NCBI GenBank assembly: GCA_963747235.1
Contig: CAVVEU010000004.1
Span: 1-64,000, forward strand
Source of the DNA: an uncultured Candidatus Rokubacteria bacterium
Lineage (GTDB): Bacteria > Methylomirabilota > Methylomirabilia > Rokubacteriales > CSP1-6
Reading direction: 5' to 3'
DNA: 64,000 nucleotides
Positions 59,619 through 62,448 of the stretch are shown one piece after another; within the stretch, counting starts at the first letter, position 1, and every line of letters starts with the position of its first letter. The position numbers were made by a program, and so were the translations under genes. Below the pieces are notes generated by a model, which was not told the origin of the DNA, made no database searches, and worked only from the letters and a program-made list of their open reading frames with translations.

Positions 59619-60374
59619 CTAGCGGGCGGCGGGGGCGGGACGCGCCGGAGTCAGGTGCTCCAGCAGCCGGCCGAAGCCGGTGATCGGGCGGGTGACGCCG
59701 AGGGCGCGGAGCGCGGTCCAGATCGTGGACTGGTTGGAGCTCACCGCGGGCTTGCCGGTGCGGGCCTCGATGGCCGCGATGGCCTCGACCGAGCGCCACG
59801 CGGTGCAGGAGCAGAGCAGGGCGTCCGCCTCGGGCCGGCAGACCCGCGCGGCGAACTCGGCCACTTCCTCCGGGTCCTGATCGTTGATGCCCTGGTTGCC
59901 GGACGCGGCGGCGCGGGGCTCGCCGTCCACGTTCAGCACCTCGAAGCCCTGGGCCTCGAGGTAGGCGCGCAGCCGCTGGTTGTTCCACTCGGGATACGGC
60001 GTGGCCACCGAGAGCCGCCGGGCCCCGAAGAAGCGGAGCGCCTCGACCACCGAGGGGCTGGTGGCCACCGCGGGCACGCCCGCCTCGCGCCGGATCAGCT
60101 CGAGCATCTCGGTGTCCCAGCCCGGGCCCTTGTAGAAGCTGCCGGTGGTGCACCCGTAGACCACGACGTCCACGTGGGCGGTGGCCAGGTAGCGGGCCCC
60201 GCTCTCGATCTCGCCGTTCATGCGGACGTACGCGTCGTCGCCGGTGCCCTCGTTGGTCATCCACAGGCGCTGGCCGTGGATGGTGACGTCGCGCGGGACC
60301 GTCAGCTGGAAGTCGGCCTCGCACGTGGTGTTCGTGGAGGGGATCATCACGCCGATGCGCTTGCGCGGGCTCAT
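59619..60374 (-). CDS. maleate isomerase / Asp-Glu racemase family protein
   Basis: IGVMIPSTNTT.E, YGCTTGS, TPY, CSCT, SSNQ; both catalytic Cys present. Confidence 0.9.
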   Translation of the reverse strand: MSPRKRIGVMIPSTNTTCEADFQLTVPRDVTIHGQRLWMTNEGTGDDAYVRMNGEIESGARYLATAHVDVVVYGCTTGSFYKGPGWDTEMLELIRREAGVPAVATSPSVVEALRFFGARRLSVATPYPEWNNQRLRAYLEAQGFEVLNVDGEPRAAASGNQGINDQDPEEVAEFAARVCRPEADALLCSCTAWRSVEAIAAIEARTGKPAVSSNQSTIWTALRALGVTRPITGFGRLLEHLTPARPAPAAR

Positions 60375-60910
60375 AGGACGCAGAAGCCCTGCGCCTCGAC
60401 CCCGAGCGGCACGTTGAACTTGCTGCGGAAGTTCTCGAGCGCCACCGCGGCGGTCAGCTCGACGATCTGGGCCTCGTCGTAGCAGGTCTTGAGGCGCGCG
60501 AAGAGCTCGTCGCTCACCCGCTGGCCGGTGATGGTCATGGCCTCCGCGTACTCCAGCGCCACGCGCTCGGCGTCCGAGAAGCGCCGGCTCTCACGCCAGG
60601 TCGGGATCTCGCGCACCTTGTCCTCGTCCGCCCCCGCCTGCATCCCACGGGATGCATTGATGTCGATTCAGAAGGGACAGCCGTTGATCAGGGCGACGCG
60701 GAGGTAGATCAGGGGCAGCAGCGCGGCGGGGAGCCGGCCGGACTTCTCGATGGCGGCGCCGAGCTGCTTGGCCGCCTTCATGATGGGCGGGCAGTGCGCG
60801 AAGACCTTGGTGGGATTCAGGAGCCCGCCGAAGATCTCGCGCTCCCGGGCGAACACGTCCTTCAGGATCGGGTCGCCGCCGTCGTCCTCGATCTCGCTGA
60901 CTCTGGGCAT
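60371..60910 (-). CDS. AhpD/carboxymuconolactone decarboxylase family selenoprotein (CxxU), 179 aa
   Basis: ORFs 60668-60928 and 60371-60643 share a frame: LRVALINGCPF-TGA-IDIN...ERVALEYAEAMT...IVELT. The TGA sits at the second Cys of the CxxC motif. Confidence 0.85.
60639..60656 (-). promoter_or_regulatory. bacterial SECIS-like hairpin
   Basis: UGCAUCC-CGUG-GGAUGCA stem-loop starting 11 nt 3' of the UGA; GU in the apical loop. Confidence 0.75.
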
Positions 60911-60948
60911 GGGAAACGGAGTATACAATAGGGCCCGCGGAGGGCGCG

Positions 60949-61930
60949 ATGAGCGACGTACGGCATCGGACGGTGGAGACGAACGGCATCCGCATGCACG
61001 TGGCCGAGCAGGGCGACGGGCCGCTCGTGCTCCTCTGCCACGGCTTCCCGGAGTCCTGGTACTCCTGGCGCCATCAGCTCGCGGCGCTCGCGGCCGCGGG
61101 CTTCCACGCGGTGGCCCCCGACATGCGCGGCTACGGCCAGACCGACCAGCCGGCGGAGATCGACCAGTACACGCTGCTCCACCTGGTCGGCGACATGGTG
61201 GGCCTGGTGGACGCGCTGGGCGGCGGGCCCGCGGTGATCGCGGGCCACGACTGGGGCGCGCCCGTCGCCTGGCACGCCGCGCTCCTGCGTCCCGACCGCT
61301 TCCGCGCGGTGATCGGACTCAGCGTGCCGTACCGGCCGCGCGGCTCGGTCCGCCCGTCCACCGCGATGCCGCAGACCGACGACGCGATCTTCTACCAGCT
61401 CTACTTCCAGGCCCCGGGCGTGGCGGAGGCGGAGCTCTCGCGGGACGTGCGGAGCAGCATCCGCCGCGTGCTCTACTCGGGCTCGGGCGAGGGCCGGCAG
61501 GCGCGCGTCGGGCTCGGCGATCCCGCCGCGGTCGGCATGGTGCCCCGCGCCGGCGGGTTCCTGAGCCACACCGCCGAGCCGCCCGCGCCGCCGTCCTGGC
61601 TCACCGAGGCCGACGTGGACTTCTACGCCGGCGAGTTCAGCCGCGCGGGCTTTCGCGGCGGGCTCAACTGGTACCGCAACATCGACCGCAACTGGGAGCT
61701 GATGGCCCCGTACGCGGGCGCGCGGGTGACCGTGCCCGCCCTCTACGTTGCGGGCGACCAGGATCTGGTGGTCCACTTCCGCGGCATGGACCAGCTCCTG
61801 CCGAACCTGAAGCAGTTCGTCCCCGAGCTCCGCCGAGACGATCATGCTGCCCGGCTGCGGGCACTGGACGCAGCAGGAGCGCCCGAAGGAAGTCAACGAC
61901 GCAATGATCGCTTTTCTAAACACCCTGTAA
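60949..61930 (+). CDS. epoxide hydrolase-like alpha/beta hydrolase (frameshift near 61835)
   Basis: HGFPE, PDMRGYG, GHDWGA, LNWYRN, GHWTQQE; ends FLNTL*. Confidence 0.9.
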
Positions 61931-61947
61931 GCCCACAGGAGGCCTCC

Positions 61948-62448
61948 ATGGGACAGACGCTCGAGCAGCTCGCGGCCACGATGCACGACATCCTCGCGGC
62001 GGAGCCCGGCCCCGCCGGGCGCGAGAAGGTTCGCGCGCTGGTCGAGGAGGTGCTCAAGGACGAGGCCTTCGTCGCGAAGCACCTGGGCGACGACGTGCCG
62101 GAGCGCAAGATCCTCTTCGAGGATCCGCAGCTCGGCTTCTGCATCCTCGCCCACGTCTACAAGGGCGCGCGCGAGAGCAATCCCCACGATCACGGCCCGA
62201 CCTGGGCCATCTACGGCCAGGCGCGCGGCGAGACGCTCATGAACGACTGGGCCCTCGTCGAGCCGGCGAGCGACGCGAAGCCCGGGAAGGTGCGGCACGT
62301 GCGGAGCTATCCCCTGAAGCCCGGGATGGCCCACGTCTACAACGAGGGCGATCTCCACTCCCCGCGCCGCGACGGGCCGACGCGCCTCATCCGCATCGAG
62401 GGCCGGAACATGGACAAGGTCAAGCGGCTGGCCTACGACAAGGTCTGA
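61948..62448 (+). CDS. cupin-fold (cysteine dioxygenase-like) protein
   Basis: SD AGGAGG; PHDHG.TWAIYG, GDLHSP. Confidence 0.75.
   Translation: MGQTLEQLAATMHDILAAEPGPAGREKVRALVEEVLKDEAFVAKHLGDDVPERKILFEDPQLGFCILAHVYKGARESNPHDHGPTWAIYGQARGETLMNDWALVEPASDAKPGKVRHVRSYPLKPGMAHVYNEGDLHSPRRDGPTRLIRIEGRNMDKVKRLAYDKV

Follow-up and report, generated by a model that had tools for sequence, protein, structure and literature searches.

RESULTS

Locus and reading frame

Analysis of a 64,000-nucleotide stretch of DNA from an uncultured Candidatus Rokubacteria bacterium (GenBank assembly GCA_963747235.1, contig CAVVEU010000004.1, positions 1 to 64,000; here named the window) revealed a predicted selenoprotein gene of the AhpD/CMD type on the minus strand. 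The sequence and its translation with TGA read as U show that positions 60910-60371 form a single reading frame of 179 codons with only one internal stop, the TGA of codon 81 (60670-60668), in the context I-N-G-C-P-F-TGA-I-D-I-N-A-S-R-G-M. The mechanical list of open reading frames (ORFs) splits the gene into 60668..60928 and 60371..60643, the second ORF starting at codon 90 of the same frame. A preliminary description of this DNA had claimed that the two ORFs are one frame broken by a single TGA, that this TGA takes the place of the second Cys in the CxxC motif of AhpD/CMD proteins, and that a perfect stem-loop, UGCAUCC-CGUG-GGAUGCA, lies 11 nt after it. The frame is as claimed, the stem-loop is exact as described, and the position of the TGA was confirmed by alignment to the Pseudomonas aeruginosa protein PA0269. 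The features of the gene are as follows (Sec, selenocysteine; SECIS, selenocysteine insertion sequence).

60371..60910, minus strand: predicted selenoprotein gene, complete, with an AhpD/CMD (YciW-like) fold; ATG at 60910-60908, TGA stop at 60373-60371
60677..60679, minus strand: Cys78 (TGT), first residue of the CxxU redox motif; invariant in 106/106 distinct orthologues
60668..60670, minus strand: UGA codon 81, putatively read as Sec, second position of C-P-F-U; aligned to the second Cys of the PA0269 CAYC motif
60657..60667, minus strand: spacer AUCGACAUCAA, 11 nt, from the UGA to the hairpin; 10 of 11 columns (nearly) invariant in alignment A1, synonymous sites included
60639..60656, minus strand: putative SECIS hairpin, with 5' arm 60656-60650, loop CGUG 60649-60646 and 3' arm 60645-60639; from folds, RNAalifold and covariation
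60641..60643, minus strand: Met90 ATG within the 3' arm of the hairpin; for gene callers the start of a separate 90-residue ORF
60380..60382, minus strand: Cys177 (TGC) in the C-terminal Q-G-F-C, possible third redox residue; Cys in 105/105 distinct orthologues that reach the column

The codons AAT GCA TCC CGT around the 5' arm had been called atypical for this genome. This holds for three of them, whose shares within their codon families are 12% (AAT, Asn), 2% (GCA, Ala) and 5% (CGT, Arg), but TCC is an ordinary Ser codon (24%). The codon table behind these shares is a crude one, made from 41 open frames of the window with high GC content at third positions, and this filter itself biases it. 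The GC content of the window is 70%. Part of the stretch is contained in 21 listed sequencing runs, six of which are recorded as RNA; the shares of these runs were given no weight as evidence.

Conservation of the TGA codon

A six-frame search of the source genome and 40 relatives yielded 30 best loci in 30 genomes, each with exactly one internal TGA. Loci were found in 17 of the 20 same-genus relatives and in 12 of the 13 genomes of a family here named f4; none of the seven genomes of other genera or families gave a locus in this search. All 30 loci carry the TGA at the same column, in the consensus G-C-P-F-TGA-[IMV]-D-I-N-[AS]-S-R-G-M, at identities down to 45%. Furthermore, a scan of the public genome collection with one genome per species found 410 stretches encoding a relative; among the best 80 of these 410, which were kept, the TGA is present at that column in 80/80. 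The two sets overlap partly, as both use species representatives, and together comprise 110 sequences and 106 distinct proteins.

Only one close full-length relative without a TGA was found, the protein P0004 (59% identity), which has Cys at the column (C-S-F-C-I-D-I-N). Thirteen more distant full-length relatives (34 to 45% identity) carry Cys in 12 cases and Arg in one (P0154). The preliminary description had expected homologues to have either Cys or TGA here, and this is what the two locus sets, P0004, PA0269 and 12 of the 13 distant relatives display; the in-frame UGA of the orthologous loci is thus paired with Cys in both PA0269 and P0004. Four database relatives, P0002, P0003, P0005 and P0006, have G, S, W and L, respectively, at the Sec column. 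Each of the residues G, S, W, L and R is either one base away from TGA or the reading of TGA in another code, and P0006 looks error-ridden.

Coding constraint on both sides of the TGA

Median ratios of nonsynonymous to synonymous substitution rates (dN/dS) for codons 1-80 versus 82-179 were 0.20 versus 0.27 among 17 same-genus sequences (136 pairs) and 0.19 versus 0.21 among 12 f4 sequences (66 pairs). Purifying selection acts in the same frame on either side of the TGA. In addition, codon use close to the TGA is unusually uniform: among invariant residues with at least three synonymous codons, a single codon is used at three of four in codons 80-89 (ATC, TCC and GGG) versus 0 of 29 elsewhere. 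In the 30-sequence DNA alignment, the segment from TTC-TGA to the 3' arm of the hairpin is nearly invariant, including third positions, while the upstream codons GGN, TGY and CCN vary freely. These observations support a constraint at the RNA level near the TGA in addition to the protein constraint.

Two trivial explanations for the internal stop can be judged from these data. According to the first, the locus is a pseudogene, i.e., an ordinary CxxC AhpD-like gene with a nonsense mutation and a coincidental hairpin; gene callers do see two short ORFs, and the assembly has other broken genes (selD and a frameshifted paralogue, L059/L060). Against it stand the TGA at the same column in 110/110 sequences (106 distinct proteins) from two phyla, the dN/dS of 0.21 to 0.27 past the TGA, similar to that before it, and the frozen synonymous sites beside it. 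Because same-frame selection continues past the TGA, we consider a pseudogene excluded for all practical purposes. The second explanation is an error of sequencing or assembly that hides a true TGC or TGT. The assembly does seem prone to indels; however, its observed defects are frameshifts and not substitutions, and the TGA recurs in genomes that were assembled independently, among them those of Reyranella and Vineibacter isolates. Same-frame selection and this recurrence together exclude a base-calling error, to which we assign an equally negligible probability.

A conserved hairpin downstream of the TGA

The 32-nt segment that begins with the UGA and closes with the 3' arm has a fold energy of -9.6 kcal/mol, and RNAalifold predicted this hairpin, and nothing else, on the 30-sequence alignment. 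Its two basal pairs change jointly between two clades, from U-A and G-C to C-G and U-A. We also counted hairpins without an alignment, taking the first hairpin only of each minimum free energy (MFE) fold. This count covered 67 distinct 36-mers beginning with the UGA, and 60 of them have the start of the loop 18 nt past it. Of the remaining seven, the two with the arms GGUC/GACC and UCCCGC/GCGGGA show an additional hairpin at the conserved position. The arms vary widely, with 23 distinct pairs such as UGCAUCC/GGAUGCA, CUCAUCC/GGAUGAG, GCAUCA/UGAUGC, UUCCGUC/GAUGGAA, UUCCGCC/GGUGGAA, UCCCUC/GAGGGA and CUGCG/CGCAG, and the loops are restricted to CGGG, CGUG, CGUGU, CGUGC and AGGG.

A covariance model built on the 30 sequences located the element at the TGA in 81/81 sources (E ≤ 0.0023). 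In the model-based, structure-fitted alignment, 93.5% of cells pair and five of the seven pairs have changed on both sides. The covariation score was 0.219, compared with 0.059 ± 0.010 in shuffles, none of 500 of which reached 0.219, and with at most 0.054 when partners were slid. The preliminary description had suggested selection for RNA structure, and the conservation of the hairpin, its covariation and the frozen synonymous sites agree with that suggestion.

In Escherichia coli fdhF, the SECIS element lies within the coding sequence just 3' of the UGA, with a spacing of about 11 nt before the stem and an apical loop that contains G-U. The element described here is much shorter, with an unbulged 7-bp stem and a loop of 4 to 5 nt. 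The consensus model of bacterial SECIS (bSECIS) elements, as quoted in a 2026 review (PMC13188914), specifies a loop of 3 to 9 nt, an upper stem of 4 to 16 bp, 16 to 37 nt from the UGA to the loop, a G among the first two loop nucleotides, with G or U usually next, and an MFE of ≤ -7.5 kcal/mol. Compared by hand, the element agrees with this model throughout, with a 4-nt loop C-G-U-G (G second, U third), 7 bp, 18 nt and the above fold energy. Taken together, the sequence data support the view that the hairpin acts as a bacterial SECIS element.

Variation of the stem alters residues 86-91 of the protein, which read, for instance, A-S-R-G-M-Q, S-V-R-V-M-E, S-A-R-A-V-E or A-A-R-A-A-E in different orthologues and S-A-R-L-A-A in the Cys form P0004. 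Another possibility is a truly split gene, in which an N-terminal peptide of 80 residues and a C-terminal one of 90 residues (from Met90) would be made separately and then assemble. An in-frame ATG is indeed present past the TGA (60643-60641), and 89 of 106 sequences have M there. A split would, however, deprive the protein of its second redox residue and interrupt the helix of the active site (79-91); moreover, the stretch that links the TGA to the ATG, codons 82-89, is conserved in its amino acids (D83, N85 and R88 are invariant), and the ATG sits in the 3' arm and varies together with it. As 17 of the 106 sequences have T, V, L, A or R instead, Met90 is not a required start, and we regard a split gene as very unlikely.

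Selenocysteine machinery of the source genome

The preliminary description had named selA, selB, selD and the tRNA-Sec gene selC as genes to be sought in this genome, and all four were found. The tRNA-Sec scored 69.3 bits (gathering score, 47) and was called SeC(tca) by ARAGORN; selA, selB and selD scored 578, 365 and 228 bits, respectively, all above the curated cut-offs. The genes for SelB, SelA and tRNA-Sec are clustered on contig C14 (40679-45481). A canonical selenoprotein of the same genome, the formate dehydrogenase alpha subunit FdhA (TIGR01553) encoded at C8:590703-593795 (L073), served as a positive control: it scored 1122 bits against a cut-off of 814, and its gene contains a single in-frame TGA. 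Furthermore, tRNA-Sec and selB were above the cut-offs in four cultured alphaproteobacterial carriers of the gene.

It is conceivable that a near-cognate or suppressor tRNA, or a reassigned code, gives the UGA one of the standard meanings Trp, Gly, Cys or Arg instead of Sec, and the residues G, S, W and L in P0002, P0003, P0005 and P0006 and R in P0154 would fit such read-through. TGA, however, is the stop codon of the selenoprotein gene as well as of 83 among the 123 open frames with at least 250 codons in the window, and the code is therefore not reassigned. Further arguments against read-through are the full Sec machinery, the SECIS-like hairpin at the canonical distance and the fact that the column is a redox-active Cys in homologues. 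We judge this explanation improbable, to about the same degree as the split gene.

Protein family and predicted fold

The Pfam family CMD (PF02627) covers residues 41-124, i.e., it runs across the TGA (1.1e-15, 57.8 bits; gathering score, 23). The sole NCBIfam model passed is the generic domain model TIGR00778 (ahpD_dom; 30.6 bits, cut-off 27.8), and the subfamily model TIGR01926 (peroxidase-related enzyme) scored 38.5 bits, below its cut-off of 81.8. By sequence, the closest solved relatives are PA0269 (2ijc, 2o4d and 7xw1; E 8.6e-18), followed by Atu0492. The alignment pairs codon 81 with the second Cys of I-N-G-C-A-Y-C in PA0269.

An AlphaFold 2 model built from 28 aligned sequences was all-helical, with a mean predicted local distance difference test score of 94.4, and places C78-P-F-U81 at the start of helix 79-91; a CxxC-type redox motif at a helix N terminus, as expected of an AhpD/CMD member, is therefore present. 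The best Foldseek match was again PA0269 (TM score 0.90 by target length, root mean square deviation 1.2 Å). The next full-length matches were the Deinococcus AhpD 6k40 (TM 0.86 by query length), peroxidase-related proteins and the debrominase Bmp8 (TM 0.83). Beyond the motif, the residues H39, D83, N85, R88 and E115 are invariant among the 106 distinct orthologues, and the cysteine of the C-terminal G-[FL]-C (Cys177) is seen again in 9 of the 13 distant relatives.

The source genome contains more CMD-family genes with one in-frame TGA, namely L057 (C33:223536-223889, C-A-R-U) and L062 (C28:612-917), as well as L059/L060 (C33:9140-9650), which has C-R-Y-U plus a frameshift. Cys-form CMD paralogues are also present in this genome (L056, L058, L061 and L063). 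Two paralogues in relatives (L070 in G030 and L071 in G036) read Y-G-V-P-Y-U-M-D-I-R-H, with Sec, no first Cys and their own hairpin past the UGA; as predicted from sequence, this is a Sec-only active site in the CMD fold.

Interpretation of the locus

We conclude with high confidence that the locus is one gene for a 179-residue AhpD/YciW-like thiol-selenol oxidoreductase, in which UGA 81 would be decoded as Sec and the hairpin would serve as SECIS. A 179-residue Sec redox protein that standard pipelines split had been proposed in the preliminary description, and the conservation of the TGA, dN/dS, the hairpin, the machinery and the ORF list all support it. Sec insertion itself, SelB binding, the substrate and the role of Cys177 are points that we infer. 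In the established bacterial mechanism, SelB loaded with Sec-tRNA(Sec) would be drawn by the hairpin to a ribosome that has paused at this codon; located inside the coding sequence, the hairpin would constrain codons 85-91. Judging from the family, C78-P-F-U81 most likely cycles between the selenol/thiol and selenenylsulfide states and would thereby reduce a peroxide, a disulfide or a partner peroxiredoxin, with the invariant Cys177 as a possible third relay residue.

Several observations count against this interpretation. Fold energy alone is within chance: the z-score of the 71-nt context is 0.09, and 19 of 200 shuffles of the 32-mer fold equally well. In a sequence of 70% GC, we therefore rejected fold energy as SECIS evidence. 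It is conservation and covariation, rather than stability, that exceed chance. The covariation alignment, in turn, follows the structure by construction, with gaps at inner pairs in 22 of the 59 distinct rows; for this reason, we gave equal weight to the alignment-free fold count. An Rfam search of 60300-61000 with E up to 10 returned two chance-level matches (sR7 and MEG3_2) and no SECIS family, so the SECIS assignment rests on the consensus model and covariation. Both selD copies of the source genome are frameshifted over two or three frames (C27:46033-46945 and C8:303114-303868). Since selD is intact in 5/5 relatives examined, all five of which also have tRNA-Sec, we read these breaks as assembly indels. 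Three of these relatives, of the same genus, have a selD with TGA plus a copy without internal stops, and in the two f4 genomes only a TGA-containing copy was above the cut-off.

With respect to catalysis, the His four residues past the second Cys, which serves as a proton relay in AhpD and is present in PA0269, is replaced by Asn85 in 106/106 distinct orthologues, so that the canonical C-x-x-C-x-x-x-H is missing and AhpD-type catalysis cannot simply be assumed. The His is also missing in 11 of the 12 Cys-containing distant relatives; its loss is therefore a trait of the wider clade and not specific to the Sec forms. Finally, the neighbouring genes differ between clades, and among them no conserved neighbour indicates a substrate.

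A more far-reaching proposal can be made only tentatively, and we think it less probable than its negation. In this proposal, the proteins would form a distinct YciW-like subfamily that almost always uses Sec and has no curated model, with a three-residue relay (Cys78, Sec81 and Cys177) that lacks the AhpD His and hence a chemistry or partner unlike that of AhpD. The gene would have moved between Methylomirabilota and Alphaproteobacteria and reverted secondarily to Cys in P0004, and the SECIS stem would dictate residues 86-91.

Relation to known proteins

Mycobacterium tuberculosis AhpD is the reductant of the peroxiredoxin AhpC. This protein (1knc, 1gu9 and 1lw1) belongs to the same superfamily and likewise has its CxxC on a helix N terminus, but it is a weak structural match (Foldseek E 0.7, TM ~0.5), and the protein described here has no equivalent of its catalytic His, which the title of entry 1lw1 gives as His137. 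PA0269 and Atu0492 (2gmy) have I-N-G-C-x-[FY]-C in the same place; they differ from the protein described here in having Cys instead of Sec and His instead of Asn, an N terminus shorter by about 35 residues and no C-terminal G-F-C. The CMD-family thiol-dependent dehalogenase Bmp8 (6ohi and 6ohj) matches over the full length (sequence E 3.3e-06), but identity is only 21 to 23%, and we saw no sign here of halogenated substrates or of a bmp-type cluster.

A sister family is catalogued as the NCBIfam equivalog model NF053654, "GroundWater_YciW", a YciW-related (seleno)protein. Residues 1-175 align with positions 1-175 of the 179-position profile, and length, Sec column, the D-[IVL]-N-A after Sec and a hairpin about 11 nt past the UGA are all shared. 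In contrast to true members, the protein scored 149.1 bits against a cut-off of 310, an f4 orthologue 134.1 and P0004 123.7. Members proper are paralogues in the same lineage, such as L065 (337 bits) and L066 (334 bits), which read C-E-F-U-Q-D-x-N-A-A-V; NF053654 members lack the orthologue-specific cysteines of A-H-C-P-P and Q-G-F-C. The protein is a member of a sister subfamily to NF053654, within a kind first described two decades ago.

Publications on CxxU AhpD-like selenoproteins go back to 2005; that such proteins exist had been stated in the preliminary description. The accessible parts of the respective reports describe 27 sequences from the Sargasso Sea (COG2128) with SECIS hairpins that carry a loop G (PMC1088965) and, in the 2008 Global Ocean Sampling analysis, AhpD-like proteins among the most abundant families, with 299 "AhpD-like 1" and 70 "AhpD-like 2" sequences (PMC2398784). 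As far as these descriptions go, the marine proteins (COG2128/YciW, TIGR01926-related) are like ours in superfamily, CxxU motif, Sec in the second position, a downstream loop-G hairpin and widespread Cys homologues. They differ in their relation to TIGR01926, whose cut-off the present protein does not reach, and in its soil, groundwater and alphaproteobacterial hosts; the likeness is one of description only.

BSepDB, in the portion of PMC13326102 available to us, includes an AhpD-like family page. The excerpted text of a 2026 review citing Deng et al. 2026 mentions a Methylomirabilota metagenome-assembled genome (MAG) with 63 predicted selenoprotein genes (PMC13188914). In the partly accessible literature on Reyranella or Rokubacteria selenocysteine and on Methylomirabilota selenoproteins, we did not find the subfamily described, though supplements or BSepDB tables may already list it.

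Distribution and preliminary phylogeny

Carriers in the species scan are mostly MAGs titled Rokubacteria, Rokuibacteriota or Methylomirabilota, plus a block of Alphaproteobacteria that includes the isolates Reyranella massiliensis 521, R. soli NBRC 108950, Reyranella sp. CPCC 100927 and Vineibacter terrae CC-CFT640. The hosts of the subfamily are thus soil and groundwater Methylomirabilota/Rokubacteria as well as Reyranellaceae/Stellaceae of the Alphaproteobacteria. For ease of reading, a quick IQ-TREE phylogeny of 110 rows was rooted on the NF053654 paralogues. In this tree, the f4 sequences formed one group (SH-like approximate likelihood ratio test [SH-aLRT] support, 95), and all alphaproteobacterial sequences formed one clade (SH-aLRT 99) nested among those of Methylomirabilota. 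The Cys form P0004 lies on a long branch within this clade (SH-aLRT 83). Tentatively, the topology points to movement of the gene between phyla and to a secondary replacement of Sec by Cys.

Loci with 67 to 96% identity also occur in MAGs titled Limnocylindria, Acidoferrum, Dormiibacterota, Nitrosocosmicus (an archaeon), Verrucomicrobiia and Sulfotelmatobacter (L076, L077, L088, L103, L111 and L136). In the quick tree, L088, L103, L111 and L136 stand next to rows of Rokubacteria or Alphaproteobacteria; the oddly titled loci are probably mis-binned contigs. The protein P0124 and several matches of ~340 to 370 residues are Cys-form relatives fused to an N-terminal stretch of ~160 residues, which looks hydrophobic in P0124. 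These fused forms may be a membrane-anchored version of the family.

Annotation of the gene in public databases

Among the best database protein matches, 114 of 120 span only about half of the query, and the three of these that were inspected (P0009, P0031 and P0051) begin at Met90, as does P0139. Likewise, a library of representatives at 50% identity contains 80-residue fragments that end right before the Sec codon (P0122, P0128, P0135, P0199 and P0237), and P0139, P0159, P0165, P0185 and P0216 of the same library match from query residue 90 at their own residue 1. The term "hidden selenoprotein" in the preliminary description is thus apt with regard to gene callers, but the kind, AhpD-like CxxU proteins, is an old acquaintance.

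The main practical point is therefore one of annotation: gene callers split the gene, and public protein collections reflect the split. A curated model of the subfamily would mend many records in genomes of Methylomirabilota and Reyranellaceae/Stellaceae. The finding adds one further selenoprotein family to a lineage that, according to the available text of PMC13188914, had previously been reported to be very rich in selenoproteins; it leaves the understanding of Sec decoding unchanged. As orthologues occur in cultured Alphaproteobacteria that are not pathogenic and have tRNA-Sec and selB, Sec insertion and the compact SECIS can be tested at the bench.

Gene neighbourhood

The gene immediately downstream of the selenoprotein gene is the following.

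59619..60374, minus strand: arylmalonate decarboxylase (Amdase)/Asp-Glu racemase-like gene (Pfam PF17645, 5.6e-33); genomic context, not a conserved partner

A gene of this type adjoins the orthologue in only five of the 29 other loci (L027, L029, L031 and L032, and a partial match in the flank of L031). The Amdase-like, HIBADH-like and alpha/beta-hydrolase neighbours are common to the closest relatives only, and we rejected the neighbourhood as a clue to function. Eight loci of a more distant same-genus group have a common upstream neighbour, which is DinB/MDMPI-like in the one locus scanned (L034). Within f4, the upstream neighbour is common to 11 of 12 loci and proved to be an HpcH/HpaI aldolase in both of those scanned (L044 and L045), and 8 of 12 have a downstream neighbour in common, a HAD hydrolase in the single one scanned (L045).

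At the locus itself, the stop codon of the selenoprotein gene overlaps the start of the Amdase-like gene in the sequence ATGA (60374-60371). On the other side, a divergent alpha/beta-hydrolase gene (60949-62448) is separated from the selenoprotein ATG by 38 nt (60911-60948), and a TATACT lies ~9 nt upstream of this ATG. Given the 38-nt gap and the TATACT, the leader of the selenoprotein mRNA may be very short.

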